A DNA stretch of 64,000 nucleotides from an uncultured Acholeplasmatales bacterium. GTDB lineage: Bacteria; Bacillota_I; Bacilli_A; Acholeplasmatales; Anaeroplasmataceae. The position numbers were made by a program, and so were the translations under genes. Positions within the stretch are counted from its first letter, which is position 1. Every line of letters starts with the position of its first letter. The notes under the pieces are model-generated. The model was not told the DNA's origin, did not search any database, and saw only the letters and a list, made by a program, of their open reading frames with translations. Positions 9,527 through 62,985 of this stretch are shown here, piece after piece. The DNA is taken from NCBI GenBank assembly GCA_944324795.1, contig CALUXR010000008.1, positions 5,753 to 69,752 on the forward strand, in the 5' to 3' direction.

Positions 9527-10870
9527 ATGCTTTTTAGAGAAAGTGAAACTATAGAATTAAAAGAAATTGTAGTTGATGAAATAAAAAAAGAAATTATCGC
9601 GTTTGCTAATAGTGATGGTGGGAAAATATTTATAGGAGTTTCTGATGATGGTATGGTAGTTGGTGTTGATGATCCAGATGATGTGTCTTTGCAAATCAGT
9701 AATATGGTAAGAGATGCAATCAAACCAGATGTAACGATGTTTGTGCATTATAAAACTATTGAAGAAGATGGAAAGAAAATTGTTGTTGTAGATATACAGC
9801 GAGGAACGGATAGACCTTATTATCTCTCAAAAAAAGGGATGAGACCTGAAGGAGTGTACGTTAGGCAAGGCTATTCATCAGTTCCAGCCTCTGATACAGC
9901 AATCCGTTATATGATTAAAGAAACGGATGGTGACCGCTTTGAGGCTATGCGTTCTTTAAATCAAGAACTTACTTTTGAAGCTGCGAAAAAAGAATTTAAC
10001 CTTCGAAGGGTAGAGTTTGGCCTAAAACAAATGCGTACTTTGAAAATGATTGATTGTGATAATCTTTATACTAATTTAGGATTGCTGCTTTCTGATCAGT
10101 GTGTTCATACAATTAAAGTTGCGACTTTTCAAGGAACTGATCAAACTGTTTTTAAAGATCGGCGAGAATTTAGTGGATCATTGCTTCGTCAAATGAATGA
10201 AACATATGATTATATAGATTTTCGTAATCAGACTCGTGCGACAGTAGAGAAATTAGTAAGAATTGATGTTAGAGATTATCCTGTAATTGCTGTTAGGGAA
10301 GCATTATTAAATTTGCTTGTACATCGCGATTATTCTTTTAGTGCTAGTGCACTTATTAGCATCTATACTGATAGAATTGAATTCGTATCTATTGGTGGAT
10401 TAATGCCAGGTATTGATTTAGAAGATATTATGCTTGGGATTTCAGTATGTAGAAACCAAGATTTAGCAAATATATTTTATCGTTTACATTTGATTGAGGC
10501 TTATGGTACTGGAATAGGAAAAATAATGAACGCATATGATGGAATGTCAAAAAAGCCAACTATTGAAGTTACTAAAAATGCCTTTAAAATTATGCTACCA
10601 AATATTAATGCTAAATATGAAAACAATATTGAATTAATTCAAAACAAAACAGAAAAAAGTAATCACTTTAATACCTTATTAAATGATGATGAAGAAAAAA
10701 CGTTAGAATATGTTAAAGAACATAATTTTGTTACAAGAAATCAAGTTAGTAAATTGTTAAAAGTTAGTGACTCTACTAGTACAAGAATTCTTCAAAAATT
10801 AGTAAAAGAGAATTTTTTAAAACAAAAAGGTGCTGGTAGAAACACTAGGTATACTATCATAAATGAATAG
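9527..10870 (+). CDS. AlbA_2 (Schlafen-like) domain / RecG-C-like HATPase_c_4 domain / wHTH protein
   Basis: N-terminus ESETIELKE...IAFANSDGGKIFIGVSDDG.VVGV; middle REALLNLLVHRDYS...SVCRNQDLANIF...EAYGTGIGKI; C-terminal wHTH (VSDSTSTRILQKLVKENFL). Often mis-annotated as RecG-related. Confidence 0.8.
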   Translation: MLFRESETIELKEIVVDEIKKEIIAFANSDGGKIFIGVSDDGMVVGVDDPDDVSLQISNMVRDAIKPDVTMFVHYKTIEEDGKKIVVVDIQRGTDRPYYLSKKGMRPEGVYVRQGYSSVPASDTAIRYMIKETDGDRFEAMRSLNQELTFEAAKKEFNLRRVEFGLKQMRTLKMIDCDNLYTNLGLLLSDQCVHTIKVATFQGTDQTVFKDRREFSGSLLRQMNETYDYIDFRNQTRATVEKLVRIDVRDYPVIAVREALLNLLVHRDYSFSASALISIYTDRIEFVSIGGLMPGIDLEDIMLGISVCRNQDLANIFYRLHLIEAYGTGIGKIMNAYDGMSKKPTIEVTKNAFKIMLPNINAKYENNIELIQNKTEKSNHFNTLLNDDEEKTLEYVKEHNFVTRNQVSKLLKVSDSTSTRILQKLVKENFLKQKGAGRNTRYTIINE

Positions 10871-29638: not shown

Positions 29639-29961
29639 GGCAATATGGTAATCGAGCAGAAATGTTAGGAAAGTCCATGCTAGCACAGTCTGCGATGACT
29701 GTAGTGTTTGTGCTTAAGGAAAAAATAACTTAAGGTACCTTTTGGTAACGGCGAATGAAATCTAAGTCGAAAGATATGATGTAGTTTATAATGTGCCACA
29801 GAAACGAGTTATAGGGAAACCTATAAATGAAACGCGGTAAACCCCTCAAGCTAGAAATCCAAATTTTGGTAGGAGAGCTTAAACTGACGAAATGAAGTTA
29901 AGTTTAGGTCACATATGTGAAGATAGATGATTACCCTTGACAGAACATGGCTTATATATTG
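29639..29961 (+). ncRNA. rnpB: RNase P RNA, type B (Bacillus-like)
   Basis: It has GGTAATCG...AGGAAAGTCCATGCTAGCAC...GTAGTGTTTGTGC near the 5' end and AGATAGATGATTACC...GACAGAACATGGCTTAT near the 3' end. P1 is CAATAT/ATATTG and P2 is GGTAATC/GATTACC. Ends are approximate. Confidence 0.9.
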
Positions 29962-32391: not shown

Positions 32392-32557
32392 TGTCATAAA
32401 ATTTAGCACTTCCACAAAATAATGTGAGTTTCTTCAAAAAATAAAATTGTGCTGAAATGTATTAATTAAAAAATAACGCTTGCTAGCTTTTTTAATAATT
32501 TATTTAATTATTTTAAAAAGGGCTTGCAATTAGATTAAAAATTAGTATAATTTAAAC

Positions 32558-32807
32558 AAGCAAGAAAAAGAAATAGTAATCTTCCCCTATATTTAGCGAG
32601 CTACAGGTTGGTGAAAGTGTAGTATAATAAGGTTGATGAACGCATCTTTTATGTAATGCTAGGAATTGAGTATTAGCATTAGGGTTCGCCCTTTACAGCG
32701 ATAGAGTATGTTTGTACTTGAAGGGTATATCTTTTTTAAGATATAAATTAAGGTGGCACCGCGGATTATTCGTCCTTAAATGATTAATTTCATTTAAGGC
32801 TTTTTTT
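32558..32807 (+). promoter_or_regulatory. T-box leader, probable Arg specifier (CGC at 32641-32643)
   Basis: - Promoter: TTGCAA (32524-29), 16 bp, TATAAT (32546-51).
- Stem I: AAUAGUA/GAACGCA specifier loop and AGCGAG...GGTGAAAG distal motifs.
- T-box sequence: AAATTAAGGTGGCACCGCGG (32746-32765).
- Terminator: CCTTAAATGA/TCATTTAAGG plus a T-run (32774-32807). Confidence 0.9.
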
Positions 32808-40246: not shown

Positions 40247-40447
40247 AAAATCAACTCTTTTCTTAAAAATTATACTTTAATTTATTTAATTATTCAAATA
40301 TTTATTTAATTCATAAAAATAATTTTTTTACAATTTAAATAAATAAAATATCTAAAATTGTTAATATATATTTTATATTATGAAAAAAAGTTAAAATAAT
40401 ATTTAAAAAAACACTTGCATAAAATATAAAAATTTGTATAATATAGA

Positions 40448-40700
40448 CAATCGATGAAAAGAAGAGTAATTTATTTAGTAGTTTTAAGAGAGTCTAGGTT
40501 AGGTGTGACTAGATAATGAAAAATAAATGAACATGGTCTTGGAGAAATGATACCAATATGTAGGTTTCATGAGGATTCGCCTCTTATAGCGATAGAGTAT
40601 GTTAGTACTTGAAAATAGGTCAATTTATTTAATTGATGAATTAAGGTTGGTATCACGAATTTTACAGTTTCGTCCTTTTGTTAGGATGAGACTGTTTTTT
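40448..40700 (+). promoter_or_regulatory. T-box leader, probable Met specifier (AUG at 40533-40535)
   Basis: - Promoter: TTGCAT (40415-20), 16 bp, TATAAT (40437-42).
- Stem I: AGAGUA/GAACAUGG specifier loop between helices AAGA/TCTT and ATTTATTT/AAATAAAT, with an AGAGAG box and GGTGTGA.
- T-box sequence: GAATTAAGGTTGGTATCACG.
- Terminator: 40664-40700. Confidence 0.85.
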
Positions 40701-45310: not shown

Positions 45311-46390
45311 ATGAAAGGTTTATATATTCATATTCCTTTTTGTAAGCATATTTGCTCATATTGTGATTTCCCTAAAAAAATAGCTTATAATGAAGAACAA
45401 ATTACTAATTATTTAAATAAATTAATAAAAGAAATAAATGGATTAAATACTAATTTATTTGATACAATATATATAGGTGGAGGTACTCCTAATAGTTTAA
45501 ATAATAATAATTTAGAATTATTATTAAAAACTATTAAAAATAAATTTAATAAATATAAAGAATATACAATTGAATGCAATCCTGAATTAATAAATAAAGA
45601 ACAAGTTTTATTATTTAAAAAATATGGTATTAATAGAGTTAGTTTAGGGGTTGAAACATTTAATGATAAGGGTTTAAAATTATTAAATCGTCATCATAGT
45701 GAAAAAGATGTTATTAATAGTGTCAAATTATTAAAAGAAAATGATATTAATAATATAAATATTGATTTAATATATGGCTATTTTAACGAAACTATAGAAG
45801 ATTTAAAATATGATTTAGAGATGATTCATAAATTAAATATTATGCATGTATCATGTTATACTTTAATTTTAGAAAAAAATACATTATTATATAAATTACA
45901 TCAAGAAAAAGAATTAAATGAAGATTTAATAGCGGATATGATGGATTATACTTATAAATATTTAGCTAAGATTGGTTTTAATCATTATGAGATATCTAAT
46001 TTTTCTAAAGTAGGATATGAATCATTACATAATTTAAAATATTGGAATAAAGAAGATTATATAGGACTTGGGATGGGTGCTACATCTTGCATTAATAATA
46101 AAAGAATTACTAATTCATATTTTATCAATAATTATTTAAAAGATATTGATAAGAGTGTTGAAATATTAGATTTAATTGATTTAAAAAAAGAATTTATAAT
46201 AATGGGATTAAGAAAAATAAAAGGAATTTTAAAAGAAGATTATTATAATAAATTTAATAGTAAGATTAATGATGATTTTAATTATAAGAAATTGATAGAT
46301 TTAAAATTATTAGAAGAAGATGATAAAAGTTTAAAATTGACTTATAGAGGTCTTTTTTTAGCAAATATTGTTTTTGAGGAATTTATATGA
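45311..46390 (+). CDS. hemW: radical SAM heme chaperone HemW (oxygen-independent coproporphyrinogen oxidase-like)
   Basis: LYIHIPFCKHICSYCDF; 359 aa. Confidence 0.88.
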   Translation: MKGLYIHIPFCKHICSYCDFPKKIAYNEEQITNYLNKLIKEINGLNTNLFDTIYIGGGTPNSLNNNNLELLLKTIKNKFNKYKEYTIECNPELINKEQVLLFKKYGINRVSLGVETFNDKGLKLLNRHHSEKDVINSVKLLKENDINNINIDLIYGYFNETIEDLKYDLEMIHKLNIMHVSCYTLILEKNTLLYKLHQEKELNEDLIADMMDYTYKYLAKIGFNHYEISNFSKVGYESLHNLKYWNKEDYIGLGMGATSCINNKRITNSYFINNYLKDIDKSVEILDLIDLKKEFIIMGLRKIKGILKEDYYNKFNSKINDDFNYKKLIDLKLLEEDDKSLKLTYRGLFLANIVFEEFI

Positions 46391-47325
46391 TTAAAAAAGA
46401 AAAAGAAATAATTTTTTATGAAATAACTGATTTTATATATTATTTAGAAGATGAAAAAAGATTAAGTAAAAATACAATTATTGCTTATAAAACTGATTTA
46501 TTAGAATATCAAGATTTTTTAGTTAAATATCAACATATTGATAATGTATGTGATATTGATAAAGATATGATATTAAAATATTTAGCTTCATTAAAAAGAG
46601 CTGAATTAGCTAAAAGAACTATTAATAGAAAGATTATTGCAATAAAGAATTTTCATAAATTTTTATATAATGAAAAAATATGTAAAAATGATGTTTCTTA
46701 TTATATTGATTTACCTAAATTAGATAGTAAATTACCAACTGTATTAAGTGAAGAGGAAATAAATAAAATGATAAATAGTATTGATACATCAGATATTATT
46801 GGTAAAAGAAATAGAGCTATGTTAGAATTATTATATAGTTCAGGACTTAGAATAAGTGAATTAATAGACTTAAAAATTGGTGATTTACATATGAATGAAA
46901 AATATTTAAATGTCATTGGAAAAGGTGATAAAGAAAGGATTATTCCAATTGGAGAAATGGCGATTGTAGCTTTACGTGATTATATTGAAAACGCTAGATC
47001 TAAGATTAGTAAAAAACCTGGTCAATGGTTATTTTATAATTATCAAGGAAATAAAATGTCAAGACAAGGATTTTTTAAATATTTAAAGAAATTAGCTCTA
47101 GATAATGGAATAACAAAAAACATTTCACCACATACTATAAGACATAGTTTTGCAACTCATTTATTAGCTAATGGGGCTGATTTAAGAATAGTTCAAGAAT
47201 TGCTAGGTCATGAAGATATTTCAACAACACAAATATATACACATATTGATAAATCACATTTAAAAGAAATGTATTTAAATACTCATCCATTAAAAAATAA
47301 AGGAGAAGATAAAAATGAAATATAA
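46387..47325 (+). CDS. xerD: site-specific tyrosine recombinase XerD/XerC type
   Basis: N-terminal SAM-like domain (LSKNTIIAYKTDL). The catalytic residues are RAMLELLYSSGLRISE...HTIRHSFATHLL...LGHEDISTTQIYTH. It sits directly upstream of deoB. The XerD versus XerC assignment is tentative. Confidence 0.8.
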   Translation: MIKKEKEIIFYEITDFIYYLEDEKRLSKNTIIAYKTDLLEYQDFLVKYQHIDNVCDIDKDMILKYLASLKRAELAKRTINRKIIAIKNFHKFLYNEKICKNDVSYYIDLPKLDSKLPTVLSEEEINKMINSIDTSDIIGKRNRAMLELLYSSGLRISELIDLKIGDLHMNEKYLNVIGKGDKERIIPIGEMAIVALRDYIENARSKISKKPGQWLFYNYQGNKMSRQGFFKYLKKLALDNGITKNISPHTIRHSFATHLLANGADLRIVQELLGHEDISTTQIYTHIDKSHLKEMYLNTHPLKNKGEDKNEI

Positions 47326-49816: not shown

Positions 49817-50494
49817 ATGATTTATTTATATATAATTATAATAAATCCATATATCAAATATATATGTTTCATTATATTATTAATGGTTTCTTCAACGTTG
49901 GTGGCTTGTCAAAATGATAAAATTGAAATAGAATACTTCCCTTATATATTTGAAGATGAATATGGCAAAATTGTAACTAAATATGCTGTTAAAAGAATGT
50001 TTTATAGACCTGAGTATAAATATTTTGAAGATGTAAACCAAGAAATTGTCATTCCAGAAACTTATAATGATGTTGAAGTCACTTATTTATTGCCAAATTC
50101 AATAAATATTATTACTCATCGGCTTGATTTAAATAAAATTAAAGTTATTCAAAAAGAAGCCATTTCAACATTTAGTACTTTTTATGAATTAGATTTAGGT
50201 GAGGTTGAAATCATTGAAGAATATGGGATTTTGTATACACGATGTAAAACAATAACAATCCCTAAAAGTGTCAAATATATAGGAGATTATAATTTTTATT
50301 TTACAGGTTATATACAAGATGTGTTTTTTGAAGGAAATCCAGAATATATAGCACCAACTGTATTTAATTTTGAAAGAAATCAAAGCTCTTCTAAAAAAAT
50401 AACTATATACGGACCATCAGGAGGGACTGTAGAAGAATTTGCAAAGATAAATAATGAAAAATTTGAAGTATGGGATCCTGCTACAAATAAATAA
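49817..50494 (+). CDS. putative lipoprotein with BspA-type leucine-rich repeat; start uncertain
   Basis: It has an STLVAC lipobox and the LRR_5-like ITIPKSVKYIGDYNFYF. There is no clear RBS and the N-terminus is odd, so the gene may be 5'-degraded. Confidence 0.5.
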   Translation: MIYLYIIIINPYIKYICFIILLMVSSTLVACQNDKIEIEYFPYIFEDEYGKIVTKYAVKRMFYRPEYKYFEDVNQEIVIPETYNDVEVTYLLPNSINIITHRLDLNKIKVIQKEAISTFSTFYELDLGEVEIIEEYGILYTRCKTITIPKSVKYIGDYNFYFTGYIQDVFFEGNPEYIAPTVFNFERNQSSSKKITIYGPSGGTVEEFAKINNEKFEVWDPATNK

Positions 50495-50522
50495 TGTTTA
50501 TTATTATAAATAAATTTAAAGT

Positions 50523-50560
50523 AAAGGTATTAGAAGATAGCGTGAGTCTAATACCTTTTT
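50523..50560 (+). terminator. strong rho-independent terminator; last plus-strand signal before the terminus tract
   Basis: 12-bp perfect stem AAAGGTATTAGA/TCTAATACCTTT, 12-nt loop, T-run. Confidence 0.8.
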
Positions 50561-52125
50561 AATTTCATAAACATGAACTGACACTTAGACTGTTCATCAT
50601 ATATAAATAAAATAATCTAATTATTTCAAAATACGATAATTTTTCGATATCATTTAACATAATTATATAAGACGACAAATTCAAAATTAAAGGCTTGAGT
50701 AATTGAGATTTATTGATAGAAAATTTAATTTTTAAATATAGTGTAAAAATTGATTTACTAACAATCATAATAATTAAGTACGTTTATTCATTTATTTTGA
50801 TTTATAAATATTTATTTATATACTTAAATAAAGTTAAGCTCAACACATTAAAATATTTAATTCTAGCGTTATATGTTGTTTAAGGGATTTTAAAGTCTCA
50901 AAATGAATAAGTTCCTTTAAGAATGATATTTTATGCATTTGTACTTAAACAATTAAAATTAAGCTAATTTAAAGGCTTATAAGTAGACTTTAACAATAAA
51001 TTGGAAAATAACCATATATAAAGTTAGAAACATCATTAACATAAATTATATTACCATATTGAATTAAAGGAACAATTCACATATATCTATTCATTTTTTG
51101 TTGGTTCTTTATCTAAATTGATTTGATGTTCTAGCAGCTGGATAATTTATGGATTTAAAAAATAAAATTTTTAAACACTAACCAGTTATTAAAACTAAAT
51201 ATAATAAATATGTTAATTATTATTTGCTAATAAATTAATAGATATCTAATAATCAAAACTAGAAAAATATTTAAATTTAAAAGTTGTTAAAATCAGATAA
51301 AAATAAATTAAAAATAAGACAAATCGACATGTATAAATACCTTTATTTTGGATTCTCGATTTGTCTTTTTCATGATAGCATTTTTGACGAAAATAAAAAA
51401 ATTTCAAAAGGCAACTAGTTTTAATTACTATATTTAAAAATATTAATATTTATTATAAGCATTAATTAATATTAGATGACTGATGAAAAAAATTATGTAA
51501 AGCAAATATATAAAATAATTATATTTTATTGTATTATTCGATTTACATAAAAATAAAGTTAATTAAGAAAAATTTAATAGTTAATATAATAAATAACCAA
51601 TGAAAATTTAATTAGATGTAGAAGAATAAGTCGTTTAAAATATACAGTCGTCTAATATATAGATTTTCACTATAAAAGAAATTAAAAATTAGTAAATTAT
51701 TATATAAAAAATTAATTTAAAAATTAAACTTAGTAGGATTGCTAAAGATATAATTAAAAATATAAATCATTCTGAAAATTAAGAGAAGCTATTTAAACAT
51801 TAATAAATATTAGTTGATTAATGTTTCTAAACAATCAATTTAAAATATATAGATATAAAATTAATACAAATAGTAATTTATAAATAAATAGACTTTATAG
51901 CAAGTATTTAAAATATGAATGAAGAAGATTATTTTATTTTTTTAGAATAAAAATTTTAACAACGTGAGCTTAGAGTTTGGATGTAAAAATAATATTGTAA
52001 TATTTGCAGAAGATGATAATAATAATCAAAACGAATTCACTTGTTTTAGATAACGGCATATAAAATAATTTAAAAGTAAATAATAAATAGCTCATAAAAA
52101 TTGGAAGTGAGTAAAAAATGAAATG

Positions 52126-52306
52126 ATTTAATTAAAATGAAACATAAGTTAAAGAAATATTATAGTTCTTATAAAGTTAAAAATAGCTGATAATGCCTAA
52201 AGAACAAAATATAAAAATAAATGAAAGTAAAATTAAAAACAAAACTATTTAATTAAAATGAAACATAATTAAAAAAATATTATAGTTCTTATAAAGTTAA
52301 AAATAG
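52126..52306 (+). repeat. two ~60-bp direct repeats spaced 121 bp apart
   Basis: 52126-52186 and 52247-52306 share ATTTAATTAAAATGAAACATAA...ATATTATAGTTCTTATAAAGTTAAAAATAG. They differ by one indel and one substitution. Confidence 0.85.
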
Positions 52307-53002
52307 AAGAAAATTGTATGAAAATTAAGATATGAAAATAAATAAAAAAATTCGTAAAAGCATATGGTTTAGTAATAATTAGTAACATTAAAAATAGTGA
52401 AAACAATTATGAAAATATGTCAACCTAGTATAAATTAAAGTGAATTAAGATTAATGGGGATTATGAAAATGAGTAACTAAAACATCTAGAATAAGATCTT
52501 AAATAGCTATAATTAAATTGAATGATTTATAAAAATTAGGGTTTCGCCCGGTATTTTTATTATAAATCATGAACATAAAATTAGTTATTTTTTTAATGAT
52601 AAAATAATAATTTGTTAATAAAAATCTAAATAACTTTTTAGAATATTGATCTATATATTACAAACAATAGATTAAATAAGTAAAAACAGACCAATCATTA
52701 TGTATATATAAAAAAGAATAGTAATAATAAAATTTTCGCAGTCTATCTAGTTTTGATAACTAGATGCGATGCAATATTAAACTAGATTTGTTGCCAAATT
52801 TTATGTAAACATTTTTTGAATTATACAAAATTTTTAAAGACAAATAAAAATCGAATTTAGGGATTGGTAGGTAAATGATTTTTCGATTTGTCATTTTTTC
52901 GTTTTTTTAGGAAGTACAACAAAATTCGTTTTTTTGAGTATCGTAAAGAAATCCACATATCCACTTAATTTAAATTATATGATTATTCTTAACTAATTTA
53001 TT

Positions 53003-53030
53003 GGTTAACATAATATATATTATAGGAAGT
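53003..53030 (-). other. dif: dif chromosome-dimer resolution site (XerC/XerD target)
   Basis: The minus strand reads ACTTCCTATAA-TATATA-TTATGTTAACC, a 25/28 match to B. subtilis dif ACTTCCTAGAA-TATATA-TTATGTAAACT. It lies at the coding-strand polarity switch. Confidence 0.85.
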
Positions 53031-53330
53031 AAAATAGATAAACAAAAATCACTAAAATTGATATGAAAAGATGTTCGTTGATGGTGTTTAGTGGTAATTA
53101 TTGATTGCTTTTACTATTTCTTCTATTCTTAAACATACTCATTTGTATCTTGTTGAATATGTTTTTAGCTTATTTTTGTTGAAAAGAAGAAAACGAAAAG
53201 GCGAAACGTGATGATTTCCCCGTGTCGATTGCCTCATTTTGCCATTGAAAATATATTTTGCTATTAGTTTACACTTTGACTTTTATTTCTTCTTCTTCAT
53301 TTACCTTGACATATGTATTTCGCTACTTCG

Positions 53331-53361
53331 TAAAAAAAGACGAGTTTTTATTTCTCGTCTT
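53331..53361 (-). terminator. rho-independent terminator of the Fic-like gene
   Basis: Minus strand: AAGACGAG-(9 nt)-CTCGTCTT followed by a T-run. The stop codon lies in the loop. Confidence 0.75.
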
Positions 53362-54442
53362 CGTCATTATTCATTATTAAATCATATAAGCTCATTTGAC
53401 GACTTGAAGTTGGTTCAAATCTATCATAGTTTGATATCCGAACCCAAGTTGCACTACGACCTACACCATTTGGTCTAATTTTATTTTCATCGCGCATCCT
53501 CTTAAGTGTTCTATCGATTGTTGATTCTGATACATAAGGATGTTTAGCTCTAATTTCATCTTTAGTAAATACTTCTCCAAGTTTTAAAATTGTATTTTCA
53601 ATGTTAAATGTTTTCGCAATGTTTTTATCAAATTTAGTATCTGAAGCTAGTTTATCAACTTTTCTATATCCATTAATTAACACATCAATTATAAAATTAT
53701 TTAGTGGGGTTGTTTTAGCATAACCATCTACCCAATTAAAATTAGCCTTAGAAACTAGTGATTTAAATTCTTCATATTCTTCATAAATCATTTCAAAAAA
53801 TGAAACATAATGGAACATCTTAAACTGTTCTTTTAACAATAACAAATAGATAATTAGCAATCCAATTTCCCAATTTCCTTCTGTAAATGGAGCTATATTT
53901 AAAAAATCTATGTAAAAATTTATTACAATTTCTGTCAATTCATATTTGCCTGAATTTATTAATTTTATATATTTATTTAATAATTCCTCCATTTTTTTAC
54001 GCCTTGATTCATGCTTTTTCTCTTCTATTAGGTTAACTTTTACAACCACATTTTCTGTTACATAGGCAATTTGTTTCACTTCTTTAAATATTCTAATTCC
54101 AAGTCTTAAAAATTCATTGCTAGTTAATTCTAATTTATCTGATTCTTCTGCTACAATTTTAAAGACATTTTTAATATTTTTTAATATTTTTTCATCATTG
54201 TTTTTTGGATTTGAATCTTTTTTTATTAATAATTTAAATCTATTGTTAGTAATATTTAATTTCATTATTTTACCAAAATAGAAAGTATCACGTTCAACCG
54301 TTTGTTTAATTATTTGTGATAAACTACCTTTTAGAATATTTTCAAAATAGAAATCTTTCCCTTTATATTCGTATAATGTAAGTAATTTCATCATGGTTTC
54401 GTTTGTTATTTGTAAGCGATCCATGTTATTTAAACAATTCAT
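53348..54442 (-). CDS. Fic-fold protein with a degenerate active-site motif and C-terminal wHTH
   Basis: The architecture resembles ~370-aa Fic proteins. The position of HPFxDGNGRxxR reads APFTEGNWEIGL. The C-terminus is STIDRTLKRMRDENKIRPNGVGRSATWV (wHTH). GAGGTG RBS. Confidence 0.7.
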   Translation of the reverse strand: MNCLNNMDRLQITNETMMKLLTLYEYKGKDFYFENILKGSLSQIIKQTVERDTFYFGKIMKLNITNNRFKLLIKKDSNPKNNDEKILKNIKNVFKIVAEESDKLELTSNEFLRLGIRIFKEVKQIAYVTENVVVKVNLIEEKKHESRRKKMEELLNKYIKLINSGKYELTEIVINFYIDFLNIAPFTEGNWEIGLLIIYLLLLKEQFKMFHYVSFFEMIYEEYEEFKSLVSKANFNWVDGYAKTTPLNNFIIDVLINGYRKVDKLASDTKFDKNIAKTFNIENTILKLGEVFTKDEIRAKHPYVSESTIDRTLKRMRDENKIRPNGVGRSATWVRISNYDRFEPTSSRQMSLYDLIMNNDEDEK

Positions 54443-54460
54443 TTTCTCACCTCTATTACA

Positions 54461-54517
54461 ATTATAATAAAAGTTAATTTCTAAATCAATATAGTCATTT
54501 TTAAAAAATGACTATAT
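54461..54517 (-). promoter_or_regulatory. promoter of the Fic-like gene with an abutting 29-bp palindrome
   Basis: Minus strand: TTGATT (54484-89), 17 bp, TATAAT (54461-66). The perfect inverted repeat ATATAGTCATT-N7-AATGACTATAT spans 54489-54517 and touches the -35. Confidence 0.6.
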
Positions 54518-54529
54518 TTAGTTTTTAGT

Positions 54530-54567
54530 TATGAAAAAGAAAAAAACTTGACATTTTGTCAAGTTTA
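54530..54567 (-). terminator. rho-independent terminator of the kinase gene
   Basis: Minus strand: AAACTTGACA-AAA-TGTCAAGTTT followed by TTTTTCTTTTT. Confidence 0.8.
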
Positions 54568-56211
54568 ATTTTTATCATCTGTGTAAAATATTGAATCGCC
54601 AATGAATTCTCTTAAAATTGAATTGCATGGAACCCAACGATCTTGAATATCTTTAAAATATTTTAAGAACTTGATTAAACGGTTCGCAGCTATATAATGA
54701 GGACTAGTTGAAGGTATCTTTTCTAATAATGGTAAAGCATATTTTTTCATTACACAAAGTTCATATGTAAGCTCACTATTATATACATAATCTGCTTTTT
54801 CTTGATATGGATAAATCCATCTAAATTCTCCTCTTCTTACAGATGGCCAAATAGCTAATGTTTTTTCGCATTCATAATTTCTATAATTATGATCTCTTAC
54901 CATACGTCTTATTAATCTAATGTCTGAAATACTTATAGGATTTTGGTCGTCTATATGTAATTGAGCTTGTGGAGCTATATAAATACGATATTTTTGTTCT
55001 GACGGAATTGATGGAGTTAAATCATCATTTAAAGCATGAATTCCTTCAATCATTATTGGCTGATTTTTACCAAGTTTAACGGTTTTACCAATTTTACGAC
55101 TGCTAGTTTCAAAATCAAAATGTGGCAATGTTACTTCTTCTCCAGCGATTAAACGATACATATGTTCATTAAATAATTCGCGATCTAAAGCATCAATATG
55201 TTCTAAATCTGGTTTTCCTTCTGCGTCTTTAGGAGCTTTATCCATTCCTAAATAATAATCATCTATTGATATCATTAAAGGCTTAATTCCACGACTCATA
55301 AGCTCTATTTTAAGTCTATTTGTAAATGTGGTCTTACCACTTGATGATGGGCCTGCAATAGCGATTAATTTAATATCGTCAATGTTCTTTTTAATTGTTT
55401 CGCCAAGTTCAGCAAGCATATTGTTATGTCTTGTTTCACAAATGTTTATGAATTCTAAGGCTTTTTTATCTTCTATAATTTGGTTCATTTGAGAAATATA
55501 ACTAGCTTCTACGATATTCCCCCAATTATTAGCCTCTCTAAGTGCATGTGTGAAAACAGGAGCATCTTCAAATTTAGGAATTTTACCACCAGCTTCAGCA
55601 CGTGGGTATTGAATTAAGAAACCAGGTGAATAAAAACGTAATTTATAGTCTTTAATATAGCCTGTTGAAGGTAACATATAACCAAACATGTAGTTTTTGT
55701 AATCTTTACATTCATAAATATGAACAGTATCTTCGGGACGATATTTTAAGATTTTAACTTTATCTTGATATCCCTGTGTTGCGTAATAGGCTTCTGCTTC
55801 TTGTTTAGTTATAGTTTTTCTTTTAATTGGTAAATCAGATTCGATTAATTCTTCTAGAACTTGCTCAATCTTTTTTAAATCAACCATTGTAAATGCTCTA
55901 TTAATGTTAGAAATTGAAGCAAAAATCGACCTTGAAATGCTATAATTGTATATAATTCTAGCGTTTGGGAAAACTATTTTTGTAGCCATAGCAATTAAAT
56001 ATCTAAGTGTTGATTGATAAATCCTACAGGCATCAGAATCAGTCAAATCTAAGAATTCTACGCTAGCATCACTATCTAAAATGTAATCTAATTCGCGAAT
56101 TCTATTGTTAACTTTAGCTGCTTGGTAATGTCTATCATTTTTTTCTAATAATTCATGTAATCTTATTGGCTTAGTAAATTCTAAGCTTTTATCATTTAAT
56201 TTAATAATCAT
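54565..56211 (-). CDS. uridine/nucleoside-kinase-family P-loop kinase with an N-terminal TGS/ThrRS-like extension
   Basis: The N-terminus IKLNDKSLEF...AAKVNNRIRELDYILDSDASVEFLDL is TGS-like. The Walker A IAIAGPSSSGKTTF plus a uridine-kinase/PRK-like core occupy the C-terminal half. 548 aa. Confidence 0.7.
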   Translation of the reverse strand: MIIKLNDKSLEFTKPIRLHELLEKNDRHYQAAKVNNRIRELDYILDSDASVEFLDLTDSDACRIYQSTLRYLIAMATKIVFPNARIIYNYSISRSIFASISNINRAFTMVDLKKIEQVLEELIESDLPIKRKTITKQEAEAYYATQGYQDKVKILKYRPEDTVHIYECKDYKNYMFGYMLPSTGYIKDYKLRFYSPGFLIQYPRAEAGGKIPKFEDAPVFTHALREANNWGNIVEASYISQMNQIIEDKKALEFINICETRHNNMLAELGETIKKNIDDIKLIAIAGPSSSGKTTFTNRLKIELMSRGIKPLMISIDDYYLGMDKAPKDAEGKPDLEHIDALDRELFNEHMYRLIAGEEVTLPHFDFETSSRKIGKTVKLGKNQPIMIEGIHALNDDLTPSIPSEQKYRIYIAPQAQLHIDDQNPISISDIRLIRRMVRDHNYRNYECEKTLAIWPSVRRGEFRWIYPYQEKADYVYNSELTYELCVMKKYALPLLEKIPSTSPHYIAANRLIKFLKYFKDIQDRWVPCNSILREFIGDSIFYTDDKN

Positions 56212-56620
56212 TTATTTCATTCCTTTCATAGTTTTTAATATTATTAAAATTATTTTTAATAAGCATTATATATAATATTTAAAATTAATTAATCTAGTTT
56301 TAATAACTATATGTCTTTTGAATTTTTTTGATCCGTTTTCCCGTGCTTATATTTTATAATATTTAAATTAAAAAATAAAGATAATATATTTTGGAATAAA
56401 TCTTATTTTAATTATTAGATTTAGTAATGTTTAAATTAAATTTTTACATATTATTATTAGATAACATAATTATTAAAACTAAATATAAATTGAAATTTTT
56501 TGTTTTTTGGTATAATTTTTAAAACTAGATATAAAATATTAAGTATTCTATTTTTGTTGTTTCAAAATATATGTTCTAGTTTTTAAAACTATTTTTGTTA
56601 TAAAAAAAAGATTTGGCAAG

Positions 56621-57742
56621 CTAGTCACCAAATCTAATCTTATTATTATATAAATCCTCCATATAACGATATGTTTCTTCACCTAAATCTAAATAAACTT
56701 CTGCTCTACTACCTGCTTCATCAATTATTAAGGCTGGATTATATGCTTCTATGGAAGTTATATCTTCCCATTCAGAATCACTAAATATATCATCATAAAC
56801 AACTTGCAATGTTGGACAATAACCAACTGCTTCAGTATTTATATAACTATTTTCTGCATCTAAAATAAAATCAATGAATTTGTAGGCTAATTCAGTTTCC
56901 GCACTTGTAATTGGAATTACCATACCATCATAAAACACATTGTTAGCGTTAGTTGGAGCATAAATACTATAAGTTTCAGCATTTTCTGCTGTATCACCTT
57001 CTGTATCTGCATAATATGCATCGAAGAAATCACCTGAATAAACTAATGCTACATCGCAATTCCCGGCTGCAACATCAATTTTTAAATCATCTGTACCCCA
57101 TTTTTGAAAATTTCTACTACTTATTAATTCAGCACATTTAAGAAGCTCTTCTTCACTAGTTGTGTTTAAACTATAGCCTAAGTAAAGCTCCGCACAAGCA
57201 AATGCATCTCTTGATGAATCATACATACCAATTTTTGCACCTTCAGGCAAAACATCTTCATAAAACACAGCAAAGCCATATTCCTCAATTATTTCCCCTA
57301 TATTAGGAAAATTCTTCTTACTATACATTATACCAAGACTACCCCAAAAATAAGGAATATAGTAGCTTTTATAGTGTTTATTTTGATTATTTGACATAAG
57401 TGTATTTAATTCACTAACAAACATATCAGGCTCATAATTTTCTAATTTTGAATAATCAATTTCTTTAAGCAAATTATTCTTATAAAGTTTATCAATCATA
57501 TAATCTGAAGGTATAACAATATCATAAGGTACTCTCCTATTTAAAATATCATTATACATATTTTCATTACTAGATGTAGTAAGTTCAGTTACAATACAAT
57601 CGTTTTCTTCTTCAAAAGCAGTTATTAAATCATACGATAAATAGTCCTGCCAATTTAAAATAATCAATTCTTTATAATATGAACAACTACTTAAAATTAA
57701 TATTGATATTAACATATATAAAATACATACTATTTTCTTCAC
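56621..57742 (-). CDS. potD: spermidine/putrescine ABC transporter substrate-binding lipoprotein
   Basis: LSSC lipobox, SBP family 1 fold, last gene of the pot operon; 373 aa. Confidence 0.8.
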   Translation of the reverse strand: MKKIVCILYMLISILILSSCSYYKELIILNWQDYLSYDLITAFEEENDCIVTELTTSSNENMYNDILNRRVPYDIVIPSDYMIDKLYKNNLLKEIDYSKLENYEPDMFVSELNTLMSNNQNKHYKSYYIPYFWGSLGIMYSKKNFPNIGEIIEEYGFAVFYEDVLPEGAKIGMYDSSRDAFACAELYLGYSLNTTSEEELLKCAELISSRNFQKWGTDDLKIDVAAGNCDVALVYSGDFFDAYYADTEGDTAENAETYSIYAPTNANNVFYDGMVIPITSAETELAYKFIDFILDAENSYINTEAVGYCPTLQVVYDDIFSDSEWEDITSIEAYNPALIIDEAGSRAEVYLDLGEETYRYMEDLYNNKIRFGD

Positions 57743-57837
57743 ATTTTTAACCCCTTAAAACTTGAACTGTATAACTATAAGCATTCAAGTTTAATAATTT
57801 TTAATGTAATTTAAACGTTTTTTAGTTACTTGAACAG

Positions 57838-58665
57838 CTATTTTACATTCTTTTTCTTTCTTAATGAAATAAATTCATATCCGAAAACAACAATTAAAGT
57901 TATTAAAATAAGCAACGTATTATAAGCACACGCTTGATTCCATAGGCCATTCCTTAAGGTTTTTAAACTTCCATATAACCAAGTTGAAAAATTTTGTCTT
58001 TTTCCTGTTACAAAATAAGTAATTATAAAGTCGTCTATACTCATAGTAAATGCTAATAAACCACCTGTAAAAATACCAGTTTTAACATTAGGAATCACGA
58101 TTTTGAATAGTGTTTTTGTTGGCGAACATCCTAAATCCAAACTTGCTTCATATAATGAACTATCATTCATAGTATTTAATTTAGGTAAAACACTTAAAAC
58201 AACATATGGTGTTGAAAACATTACATGAGCTATTAAAGTAGTTGTAAAACCAAAAACACTTCTACCAAAAATCATTCCAACTAATTGAAATATAACTAAT
58301 AGAAACACTGCCGAAACAATATCTGTATTTAATATTGGTACGTTATTTAGCATTATTATTCTTCTTTTAGCCACTTTGCTTAAACTATGTATACCAATGG
58401 CTGAAAATGTTCCTAATATTATTGAAATCAAAGTACTAAAAAATGATATTTGTAAAGTATAAATAATGGAATTCATTAAGCTTCTTGACTTCCACATTGC
58501 TATATACCAATCAATAGTAGGCTTTGTCATAGATAAACCGAATTTATCACTTGAAATGCTAGTTAAAGCTATAACTATTATTGGCAAATAAGTAATTAAT
58601 AAAACAATTACTAAAAAAGTTATTGCAATTGCTTTAATTAGATAATTTTTAGTTTTCTTATTCAT
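57838..58665 (-). CDS. potC: spermidine/putrescine ABC transporter permease
   Basis: 6-TM permease with an EAA loop (EASLDLGCSPTKTLFKIVIP); 275 aa. Confidence 0.85.
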   Translation of the reverse strand: MNKKTKNYLIKAIAITFLVIVLLITYLPIIVIALTSISSDKFGLSMTKPTIDWYIAMWKSRSLMNSIIYTLQISFFSTLISIILGTFSAIGIHSLSKVAKRRIIMLNNVPILNTDIVSAVFLLVIFQLVGMIFGRSVFGFTTTLIAHVMFSTPYVVLSVLPKLNTMNDSSLYEASLDLGCSPTKTLFKIVIPNVKTGIFTGGLLAFTMSIDDFIITYFVTGKRQNFSTWLYGSLKTLRNGLWNQACAYNTLLILITLIVVFGYEFISLRKKKNVK

Positions 58666-59507
58666 AGTAAAGTTTCTCCTTCCTGGTCAACTCTACTAAT
58701 TAAATAAATAGATGATAGAGTAAATATTAATATAAATAAACTCATTAAACTTCCAACATTGTACTGTGGACTAGAAGACATAAATTGTCTTTCAATAAGT
58801 TGTCCAAGCATCGCATAATTAGGATCACCATCAGTTACGATTTGAGGAATTGTAAAACCCATCGCACATGGTAAGAAGACCATAATAAAACCACTAAATA
58901 TTCCTTTTAAACTTAATGGAAATGTAATTTTAAAGAAAGATTTAAACGGTGATGAACCAAGATCATTAGCCGCTTCTATTAAGGTGTGATCCATCTTTTC
59001 AAGCACTGTGTAACATGGGAATATCATAAAAGGTAAATAAACAATAGTCATTACTAATATAATTTTTAAGCTTTTATAATTCGTTAAATCAATTGATAGA
59101 CCAAACGTGTTCGATAAAAAAGAATTTGGCTTAAATAAATTATTTAAGGTTTGAATTCTAAGCAACATATTAGTCCACATTGGCATAATAAAGACTAATA
59201 ATAGCAAAAATTTATATTTTGATTTCATTTTTGAAATTATATAAGCTATCGGATAACCTATTAAAAATGTCAAAATTGTTGATATTAAAGCATAGCCAAA
59301 TGAACGTAAGAATGCTTTAAAAAAGACTGTTGAAAAAGCTTTTGATGCATGTGTTAAACTAAAAGCAAATTCATCAAATTTAAATGTATAAGTTGAGAAA
59401 CTATTAGTATTAGAAATACTAAATATTATCATCAAAATGATTGGAATTCCTGTTAATATAAGAAGCCAAACGATATAAGGAATTGCTAAATTTTTATATT
59501 TTTTCAT
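58662..59507 (-). CDS. potB: spermidine/putrescine ABC transporter permease
   Basis: Permease with an EAA loop ([20 protein letters not shown]); 281 aa. Confidence 0.85.
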
Positions 59508-61035
59508 TTACTTTCATTAGATGGATTTCATATGGATCAACCATCAATCCAATCTTATCTCCTTCATGGAATAATTCATATTTTCTAATAATAAATGTTT
59601 CTCCTTCTACTAAGGCAGTAATTTCAAAATGAATTCCTTTAAATATAACTTTTTTAACTTCACCAATCAATTTAGCTTCTTCTAATGGAACAACATCAAA
59701 ATCTTCTGGTCTTATTACAACATCAACTATTTCACCGTCGTTAAAATTTTCATCAACACATTTAAATTCTTTACCTAAAAACTTAACTGTTTTATTTCCT
59801 AAATATGTTCCTTTAATAATATTAGATTCACCAATAAAGTTCGCAACAAAGCGATTTTTAGGTTCATTATAAATATCTTCTGGGGTTCCTATTTGTTGAA
59901 TTAAACCACCATTCATTACTACAATTGTATCACTCATTGTCAAAGCTTCTTCTTGGTCGTGTGTAACAAAAACAAATGTAATACCTAATTTCTTTTGCAT
60001 TTCTTTAAGTTCATATTGCATAGCTTGTCTAAGTTTTAAATCAAGAGCCGCAAGAGGTTCGTCAAGTAATAAAATTCGTGGTTTATTAACAATGGCTCTA
60101 GCTATTGCGACACGTTGTTGTTGGCCACCAGACATTTCATCAATTTTTCGGTATTCAAAACCTTCAAGTTTAACAAGTTTTAAAGCGTTTAATACTTCTT
60201 CTTTAATTTGTTTTTTATTTTTCATTAATGATTTAGCTGATTTTATTTCTAAAGCTTTATTTTTTAAAGCTTCTTTCTTTTCTTTTTCTAAAGCAGTTAA
60301 TTTAGTCCAATCAGCTACATTTTTTAATTTTTTAATTTCTGACTCATATTTTTTATATTCTTTTTCTTCTTTAGCACCTTTACTAACTGCTTCAGCAACT
60401 AAATTATCAATTTCTTTAAGCTTTAATTTAGCTTCTTTAACTTCATCATCTTTGTCCCATTCAATATCTATTTGTTCATCTAATTTAGCAATTAAAGGCT
60501 CATATTTAGTTTCAACTTCTTGAAGTTTTTCTTCTATTAATCTACTTTTTTCATCTAACACTTCAGTTTTAATTTGCCCTTTTAGATGCTTTAACTCAGT
60601 TTTTAAAGTTAACTTTTCTTCTTTTGTTATATTTTTAGCCTTTAATTTATTTTCAATGATTTTACGTTCATTTTCATATTTTCGACTAACATTAGTTTTA
60701 ATATCTGATATAGTTCTATTAAAATTACGAAGTCCAAAAGCAACATTATCAAACACATTTAAATGTGGAAATAATGCATAACGTTGAAAAACCGTATTTA
60801 CCGGCCTTAAATGAGGTGGTACATCATTAATTTTTACCCCATCTAAAATCACATCACCATTATCAGTTTCCTCAAACCCTCCTATGATCCTAAGTAAAGT
60901 AGTTTTACCACAACCAGAAGGTCCTAGTAAGGTGATAAATTCATTTTCATTAATATATAAATTTAGATTGTTTAAAACTAAATTATCTCCAAAACTTTTT
61001 GAAATGTTTTTTAATTCAATCAATTTTTTAGCCAT
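59494..61035 (-). CDS. potA: spermidine/putrescine ABC transporter ATPase with a ~170-aa Lys/Glu-rich coiled insertion
   Basis: I prefer the ATG at 61035 (GGAGGAAATATG). Walker [29 protein letters not shown], and a C-terminal TOBE-like domain. The insertion is about 60214-60720. Confidence 0.88.
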
Positions 61036-61043
61036 ATTTCCTC

Positions 61044-61577
61044 CTAAAAATTTGGGGGACAAGAAACCCAAATTATATGTGCTTCATCCTCACCAATATT
61101 TTCTATATAATGGGTTTTATCAGTTTTATAATAATAAGATTCCCCCATTTTAATTATCTCTTCTCTATTGTCATAATGAAGTTTAATAATTCCTTTTATG
61201 ACATATCCAAATTCTTCACCTGGATGCGGATAATCAATATCAGTTTTACCATTTTTTCTTAAAATTACATAAATAGGTTCCATCCTTAAAGACTGTGCAG
61301 ATGGTACGAGCCAGGATTGAACATAATCTCCATAATCTTTATCTAGCTGTTCTTCTTCACTAAATTTAATTTGTATATTTTCATCCTCTTTAAAAAAAGA
61401 CGAAAAACTGAACCCTAAAGCATCTAAGATGATTTTTAAAGTTTCGATTGAAGGATCAGTTTTATCATTTTCAAGTTGTGAAATATAACCTTTAGTAAGT
61501 TCACATCTATCTGCTAATTCTTCTTGTGTTAAACCTAAAAGTATTCTTTTTTCTTTTATTTTCTTACCGATTTCCAT
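61044..61577 (-). CDS. XRE-family HTH plus cupin-domain transcriptional regulator
   Basis: N-terminal HTH_3 ([32 protein letters not shown]) and a C-terminal cupin ([10 protein letters not shown]...). It ends 8 nt before potA. Confidence 0.85.
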
Positions 61578-61606
61578 TATTTCACCCCGTTTTATAATTT
61601 TAAACT

Positions 61607-61626
61607 TTTAGTAAAAAATTACTAAA
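61607..61626. promoter_or_regulatory. 20-bp palindrome (candidate operator) in the pot-operon leader
   Basis: TTTAGTAA-AAAA-TTACTAAA. It lies just downstream of a minus-strand TTGTTT-17-TGtTATAAT promoter (-10 at 61630-61635) and about 30-50 bp upstream of the regulator ATG. Confidence 0.45.
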
Positions 61627-61740
61627 CGAATTATAACAAAAATATCATTTAAAAACAACAAATATTTAAATTTATTAAACAAAAAATAAAGAAATATTAA
61701 ACAAAGTTAAAATAAAAAAAGTTAAATACTTATTTAAAGA

Positions 61741-62004
61741 TTATTTAACTATATTTTTATTATTATTTTTAAATAAAAGACTAAATACGACCAGAGTTAT
61801 AACACATAAAATAATTAAGCATATAATAATTATATAATCAATATCTTTTTTTATAAAAAAGCCATATATTCCTAAACCCATATACAATAAAGATATAATA
61901 ATAAAACAAATTCCTTTAATTTTATCTTTATTAACAATTAATTTAATTGCGTAAAATATTATAATCAAACCTAAAATTATAGCTACTAAATTATAAAATA
62001 ACAT
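61741..62004 (-). CDS. small membrane protein (87 aa, 3 TM)
   Basis: Hydrophobic ORF. No recognised family. Confidence 0.5.
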   Translation of the reverse strand: MLFYNLVAIILGLIIIFYAIKLIVNKDKIKGICFIIISLLYMGLGIYGFFIKKDIDYIIIICLIILCVITLVVFSLLFKNNNKNIVK

Positions 62005-62677: not shown

Positions 62678-62854
62678 ATGTCCCTTTCATCGCATAAATG
62701 GCGACATACCTTATCTTCTACTCTATTGGCTAATGGCGTAAATTTAAAAACTGTACAAAATATTCTAGGCCATTATAATATATCAGTGACAAGCAAATAT
62801 ATCCATACTAATGAAGAAATTGACAAAGAAGCATTTTATAAAGTTTTTAATTAA
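62678..62854 (+). pseudogene. tyrosine integrase, C-terminal 58 codons only
   Basis: MSLSSHKWRHTLSSTLLANGVNLKTVQNILGHYNISVTSKYIHTNEEID.. contains the HxxR and LGH...Y catalytic boxes. No upstream integrase body is present. Confidence 0.7.
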
Positions 62855-62910
62855 TTTAGCTAACAAAATCAATTTACATTTTTTAAAATATTTTTACATT
62901 GCCCCACTTT

Positions 62911-62985
62911 TGGCAGAAGCAGTAGGATTCGAACCTACGTATGATGGGGTCAGAGCCCATTGCCTTACCGCTTGGCGATGCTTCC
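62911..62985 (-). tRNA. tRNA-Gln (anticodon CUG), CCA encoded
   Basis: The reverse complement is GGAAGCATCGCCAAGCGGTAAGGCAATGGGCTCTGACCCCATCATACGTAGGTTCGAATCCTACTGCTTCTGCCA. It forms a cloverleaf with anticodon loop CUCUGAC and closely resembles Bacillus tRNA-Gln apart from the anticodon. Confidence 0.9.

Follow-up and report, generated by a model that had tools for sequence, protein, structure and literature searches.

The closest described counterparts of the locus analysed here are the dif site of Bacillus subtilis, which works with the recombinases CodV (XerC) and RipX (XerD), and that of Escherichia coli, which works with XerC, XerD and an FtsK translocase guided by KOPS motifs; both Xer systems, on which the mechanism considered below is modelled, have been reviewed (PMC5357621). 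The genes of the classical XerCD systems were described as 'distant from dif' (Le Bourgeois et al. 2007), and xerD genes were found mostly near the origin in a survey that counts Acholeplasma laidlawii among the XerCD-bearing genomes and treats dif as a marker of the terminus region, not necessarily as the exact meeting point of the forks (Kono et al. 2011, PMC3025954). We analysed a 64-kb stretch of DNA, called the window in what follows, from an uncultured gut bacterium related to Acholeplasmatales and Anaeroplasmataceae. A 28-bp sequence on its minus strand (53003-53030) was annotated as dif, the chromosome dimer resolution site, on the basis of its sequence, its uniqueness, its identity to known dif sites, its conservation and the terminus-type skew flip seen around it elsewhere. 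We conclude that it is very probably the chromosomal dif of this bacterium, located at the terminus region. It is a canonical Firmicutes-type XerC/XerD dif, of a kind already well known, and its biology is textbook Xer/dif.

The minus strand at 53003-53030 reads ACTTCCTATAATATATATTATGTTAACC (plus strand, GGTTAACATAATATATATTATAGGAAGT). This reverse complement of the plus strand can be parsed as ACTTCCTATAA-TATATA-TTATGTTAACC, and the 11-6-11 layout of XerC arm, central region and XerD arm proposed in the earlier note was thereby recovered: the site has the 28 bp, the two 11-bp arms and the 6-bp centre of a classical Firmicutes-type dif. The reference dif sequences used for comparison were verified against Kono et al. 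2011 (PMC3025954; Table S1 for the predicted ones). A recount against the experimentally proven B. subtilis dif (ACTTCCTAGAATATATATTATGTAAACT) from that source confirmed that 25 of the 28 bases are shared, as had been claimed from a hand alignment; the corresponding figures were 26/28 for the predicted Staphylococcus aureus dif and 20/28 for E. coli dif. The putative XerC (CodV-type) arm ACTTCCTATAA (53020-53030, minus strand), whose assignment to XerC is by analogy, equals the predicted S. aureus XerC arm and matches that of B. subtilis at 10 of 11 positions. The central region TATATA (53014-53019, minus strand), the proposed place of strand exchange, is the same as the B. subtilis and S. aureus cores. 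The putative XerD (RipX-type) arm TTATGTTAACC (53003-53013, minus strand), which faces the xerD gene of the window, is identical over 11/11 positions to that of the predicted A. laidlawii PG-8A dif (AGTGCCTATAATGTATATTATGTTAACC), and the resemblance to the E. coli XerD arm reported earlier holds with a small correction, at 9 of 11 positions. The dyad symmetry of the arms is partial (6/11 positions), with symmetric inner ATAA and TTAT. When up to three mismatches were allowed, the 28-mer had a single match in the 64-kb window, which is the one copy that had been expected, here with the window as scope, and none of 100 shuffles gave any. The runner-up site in the window had 7 mismatches, a value comprised in the range of the best sites found in 200 composition-preserving block shuffles (6-9 mismatches). 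The match to dif is not a chance one.

In order to follow the site in other genomes, we scanned reference assemblies (one genome per species, 185,579 species) for the exact 28-mer only. It was found in 70 assemblies, with one copy in each. The carriers included Anaeroplasmataceae, Acholeplasmatales, Izemoplasmatales and Haloplasmataceae, as well as many metagenome-assembled genomes (MAGs) labelled 'Bacilli' or 'Mollicutes'; further carriers were Virgibacillus litoralis and two MAGs, one of Erysipelotrichaceae and one of Thomasclavelia. In two complete chromosomes the 28-mer lies at 46% of OW818673.1 and at 73% of CP074575.1, values that are record coordinates and not distances from the origin. 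As the loci were chosen by exact match, conservation inside the 28 bp is given by construction; it drops to background immediately outside. Where 1.5 kb or more was available on either side, as in 38 loci, 32 displayed a terminus-type skew flip, defined as positive skew on the left and negative skew on the right, none displayed an origin-type flip and 6 were mixed.

Closer relatives were examined separately. Metagenome contigs from the same species (97-100% identical) were retrieved via the 364-aa protein encoded next to the site, and all eight carry the exact 28-mer at an equal distance from the 364-aa gene. The nearest reference genomes, none of the same species, are gut MAGs labelled Acholeplasmatales or Anaeroplasmataceae (L010, L021, L030 and L059); their nucleotide identity is about 77-80%, and in all four the 28-mer is syntenic. 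Conservation at the equivalent position, on which the earlier reading as dif had been made to depend, was therefore observed in 8/8 same-species contigs and in the four related species. The gene nearest dif (53348-54442, minus strand), which encodes the 364-aa protein, has no family assignment and gave only a sub-threshold Fic match. Next to it, the 548-aa product of 54565-56211 (minus strand) combines a uridine-kinase/PRK domain with an N-terminal region weakly similar to the N-terminus of threonyl-tRNA synthetase. Both genes are kept beside dif in the four related species.

The window also carries a tyrosine recombinase gene (46387-47325, plus strand), which is read in the direction of dif and lies 5.7 kb away. 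The earlier note had described a XerD/XerC-type recombinase at this distance, and family models allowed us to specify it as a XerD equivalog: the product scored 362.9 bits on the XerD model TIGR02225 (cut-off 329.6) and 316.7 bits on the XerC model, below the cut-off of 335.15, so that XerD is preferred by 46 bits. Its best PDB match is E. coli XerD (1a0p, 190 bits, full-length), XerH being a distant match (89.7 bits), and its score on the XerS model is 113.8 bits vs a cut-off of 267. In an alignment of 17 sequences, the columns of the catalytic residues (R, K, HxxR, H and Y) did not vary. Family-model searches detected no XerC or FtsK gene within the 64-kb window; since xerC is normally unlinked to dif, its absence from 64 kb is uninformative. 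Apart from xerD, the only trace of a tyrosine recombinase in the window is an ORF of 58 aa for the C-terminal fragment of an integrase (62678-62854, plus strand). The fragment aligns to the final 44 positions of the Phage_integrase domain and to no others. It lies beside tRNA-Gln(CTG) (62911-62985, minus strand) and was probably left behind by an element that had inserted at this tRNA gene. The stretch around 62678-62985 is less conserved between strains.

We then used the window XerD in tblastn searches of the 70 loci that carry the 28-mer. A XerD-like gene was found 1-8 kb from dif in 36 of them (L014-L077). Without exception, the linked xerD lay on the XerD-arm side and was read toward dif, and the window is arranged alike. 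The 8-kb locus blocks are cut arbitrarily, and a fair count of linkage has therefore to be restricted to loci with enough flank. On the XerD-arm side, xerD was present in 19 of the 20 loci with at least 5 kb and in all 13 with at least 6 kb, while the XerC-arm side gave 0/25 and 0/16, respectively. No second recombinase was detected near dif in any of the loci by tblastn with the window XerD. All ten linked proteins that were tested scored best on the XerD model, seven of them above the cut-off; the preference was narrow for the proteins of L020 (318.7 bits for XerD vs 312.2 for XerC) and L092 (312.7 vs 301.2). The genes located between xerD and dif differ: deoB, an Fe-alcohol dehydrogenase gene and an LRR_5 gene in the window, a ZIP transporter gene alone in L042 and L020. 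The converse approach, a metagenome scan seeded with xerD, returned 80 loci with mostly distant XerDs (35-53% identity) and gave little resolution within the clade. A Firmicutes-type dif was present 3-6 kb downstream, in the same arrangement, in three of these 80 loci (L079, L081 and L092). Only these three closest low-GC loci carry a downstream dif, which indicates that the linkage is clade-specific. The linkage group comprises Anaeroplasmataceae, Acholeplasmatales, RF39-like 'Bacilli' MAGs, some Erysipelotrichaceae, Haloplasmataceae and the Mycoplasmatota strain zrk6.

This near-universal linkage within the clade, which contrasts with the descriptions of Le Bourgeois et al. 2007 and Kono et al. 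2011, is the only point of the present analysis that goes beyond routine. Its simplest reading is an ancestral gene order retained in small genomes. It is rather unlikely, in our view, that the unit made up of xerD and a canonical dif in a broad group of wall-less or reduced Bacilli is conserved because the linkage itself is functional. If it were, one might speculate about a terminus-local supply of XerD, co-inheritance of site and recombinase, or a step toward single-recombinase systems of the XerS/difSL type. The xerD-dif linkage could in any event inform the origin of linked modules such as XerS/difSL.

The same data raise the question of whether a single cis-linked XerD-like recombinase acts on both arms of a functional dif, as in XerS/difSL or XerH/difH. 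The constant arrangement of xerD in 19/20 loci whose flank on that side reaches 5 kb, which resembles that of xerS and difSL, the near-equal scores of some linked proteins (L020, L092) on the XerD and XerC models, and the lack of a second recombinase near dif in any locus all point in this direction. However, the two arms are clearly different, with 6/11 symmetric positions, the window protein prefers the XerD model by 46 bits, and a missing xerC carries no information over 64 kb, given that this gene is normally unlinked. Moreover, the arms are those of two-recombinase species, the XerC arm being that of S. aureus and the XerD arm that of A. laidlawii. The distinctness of the arms and their identity to the matching arms of such species favour a two-recombinase system, and we regard action by a single recombinase as improbable. 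Our preferred reading therefore remains a classical dif served by XerC and XerD.

We also considered whether a mobile element (IMEX, plasmid or phage) introduced the 28-mer as a dif-like attachment or resolution site, in which case it would not be the dimer resolution site of the host. Dif-like sequences are indeed carried by plasmids of Bacillus and Priestia and by phages of Listeria, and strains differ in the adjacent 2.5-kb stretch free of ORFs as well as in the LRR_5 gene. Against this, homology between relatives continues across the site and is lost further on, after about 330 bp when strains are compared and after about 55 bp when species are; because the break lies beyond the site, the latter is not the edge of an inserted element. 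In addition, the site is flanked by housekeeping genes, no second dif-like or half site occurs in the window, a degenerate Firmicutes-type dif pattern had no match in 2.9 million viral contigs, and the 28-mer is present once per genome with a terminus-type skew flip in 32/38 species. Origin from a mobile element is thus very improbable. More specifically, an IMEX or other element integrated at dif was rejected, as no second site was better than 7 mismatches and the breakpoints do not coincide with dif. A partial second site about 90 bp from dif (52910-52915, 'TAGGAAGT') was judged to be due to chance, its remaining positions being mismatched and the site being absent among those with up to 10 mismatches. 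As to the sequences on mobile elements, those of a family of Listeria phages (P70, LP-114, LP-026 and others) are about 90% identical over 32 nt, and similar ones are found on many Bacillus and Priestia plasmids; they are presumably Xer-dependent resolution or integration sites.

The ORF-free spacer that separates the last plus-strand gene from dif (50495-53002, about 18% GC) is part of the context and not of the recombination site. Within these 2.5 kb we found no Rfam match, no tRNA, no terminator-like sites and no protein-level remnant of the genes present in the alternative strain variant, and promoter-like sites were below shuffle expectation. A single repeat was found in the gap; it is direct, imperfect and about 99 nt long (52096-52194 and 52216-52314, spacing 120 nt), with 71% identity overall and a near-identical core of about 60 nt. 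A variant of the gap occurs in L003, L004 and L007, where it is collinear and 72-77% identical, vs 97-99% for the flanking genes. The gap is adjoined by a gene for a BspA-type LRR_5 surface protein (49817-50494), which is intact here (225 aa). It is split into ORFs of 87 and 104 aa in L002 and L006, and its place is taken in L003 and L007 by two LRR_5 genes plus an ORF of 419 or 472 aa.

The location of the site with respect to replication was assessed from base composition and gene orientation. The cumulative G-C skew reached its maximum at 53213, 183 bp from the 28-mer, on a plateau (53083-53353) that forms the compositional switch point. We extended the window on its right-hand side with contig L159, which comes from the same strain, shows 100% identity across the 12.3 kb shared with the window and adds 8 kb past it. 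The strain is also represented by contig BRZ_KM NODE_264 in ERZ24773411. The skew stays at -0.2 to -0.3 in this extension and the maximum remains at 53213, so that the extremum anticipated near 51-53 kb was found both in the window and in the window plus 8 kb. The ORF lists likewise agreed with the flip in coding polarity that had first drawn attention to the site. The interval 1-50494 (plus strand), taken as the end of one replichore, has a GC skew of about +0.2 and carries 40 of its 43 genes on the plus strand and 3 on the minus strand, and in the interval 53348-62004 (minus strand), the start of the other replichore, all eight genes are on the minus strand. This pattern carries on in L159, where 7/8 additional protein genes beyond the window are on the window's minus strand. 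Altogether 16 of the 17 genes to the right of the site, the 8-kb extension included, are on the minus strand and point toward it, the orientation and skew data covering about 19 kb on this side. Within the window and L159, the site thus lies at the shift point of the skew and between converging leading-strand genes.

Skew and orientation are nevertheless not independent evidence, because the skew is dominated by a coding-strand effect. The coding-strand skew of the three lagging-strand genes on the left was +0.19 vs +0.24 for the leading-strand genes. GC skew mostly tracks the coding strand here, and its flip is therefore largely the flip in gene orientation, although the intergenic skew changes sign too, from +0.184 on the left (883 G, 608 C) to -0.075 on the right. 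Since dif lies in the intergenic gap where the replichores converge, it also marks the replication terminus region. That the switch would be a mere local block of oppositely oriented genes, with another role for the 28-mer, fits the dependence of the skew on the coding strand and the roughly 19 kb examined on the right, but is hardly credible given that the switch persists over at least 19 kb with 16/17 genes directed toward the site, that intergenic skew flips as well, that a convergent, terminus-type flip surrounds the 28-mer in 32/38 other species and a divergent flip in none, and that 25/28 of its bases are those of a proven dif.

Polar motifs were searched as candidate guides for a translocase. 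The B. subtilis SRS GAGAAGGG and the E. coli KOPS GGGNAGGG have zero occurrences in the window; any guide motif must therefore differ from these, and might be A-rich like GAAGAAG, the guide motif of Lactococcus lactis (PMC3384302). The strand counts of GAAGAAG are 37:2 on the left of dif and 0:10 on the right, a bias that is confounded with the coding strand. Many purine-rich words flip at dif in the same manner, owing to the co-orientation of genes with replication, and only one informative lagging-strand occurrence tracks replication rather than coding. The polar-motif data are thus compatible with the proposed mechanism and do not decide the matter.

The window has about 25% GC and long intact ORFs in the standard genetic code, and its housekeeping genes include relA/spoT, dtd, lon, pnp, deoB, potABCD and the gene of trigger factor, among others. 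Three plus-strand RNA features (29640-29959, 32555-32780 and 40445-40680), namely an RNase P RNA of class B and a pair of T-box leaders, are ordinary in themselves and helped to assign the organism to the Firmicutes/Bacilli. The PotA-like ABC ATPase encoded at 59494-61071 (minus strand) matches family models in two separate stretches, about residues 17-117 and 284-520, which points to an insertion of about 165 aa inside this protein; its best model is the Mycoplasma-type MMSYN1_0197. A protein with Schlafen/AlbA_2 and HATPase_c_4 domains is encoded at 9527-10870 (plus strand), and a cluster encoding two SLFN-g3 helicase-like proteins and a MazG-like protein lies just to the right of the window (L159, 1-3791), past the terminus. 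The genes of this cluster may be defence-related genes near the terminus.

Taken together, the identity to known dif sites, the skew, the convergence of genes, the conservation and the presence of a XerD equivalog uphold the interpretation, first put forward in the earlier note, of the 28-mer as a dif site at the replication terminus. From the Xer systems of E. coli and B. subtilis we infer the pairing of arms with recombinases, the involvement of XerC and FtsK and the recombination activity itself. By this analogy, a XerC-type recombinase would bind the ACTTCCTATAA arm (the ACTTCC side), and XerD, encoded 5.7 kb away, would bind the TTATGTTAACC arm. A translocase of the FtsK/SpoIIIE type, following polar motifs that converge on dif, would pair the two dif sites of a chromosome dimer at the septum, and two sequential pairs of strand exchanges across TATATA would then turn the dimer into monomers. 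In practical terms, the site anchors the terminus on the contig, which helps to orient, close and annotate MAGs, and it can serve to estimate growth rates via the origin-to-terminus coverage ratio.

Comparison with named systems places the locus among the classical ones. In XerS/difSL of streptococci and lactococci and in XerH/difH of Helicobacter and Campylobacter, the recombinase gene is likewise linked to the terminus site. There, however, gene and site are immediately adjacent, whereas here they are 1-8 kb apart with unrelated genes between them, and difSL is 31 bp long with an 11-bp core, in contrast to the classical 28 bp and 6-bp core of the present site. With a classical site, a XerD equivalog and a non-adjacent gene, the locus was not assigned to these single-recombinase modules. 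E. coli dif, with XerC, XerD and FtsK-KOPS, has the same architecture, and the recombinase encoded here is a full-length homologue of E. coli XerD, but the outer XerC arm of E. coli dif is unrelated to the arm found here. The predicted S. aureus dif is the same up to base 23, which takes in the XerC arm, the core and the initial six bases of the XerD arm, and the predicted A. laidlawii PG-8A dif has the same XerD arm, TTATGTTAACC, so that the site reads as a combination of the two; the exact 28-mer is absent from Table S1 of Kono et al. 2011 (PMC3025954), the sites of which are computational predictions. The B. subtilis dif, with CodV (XerC) and RipX (XerD), is alike in its 28-bp 11-6-11 layout, its TATATA core and its location at the terminus, and differs by three bases, of which the XerC arm accounts for one and the XerD arm for two. 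Both systems have a XerD equivalog, but B. subtilis ripX lies hundreds of kb from dif, vs 5.7 kb for the xerD gene described here.
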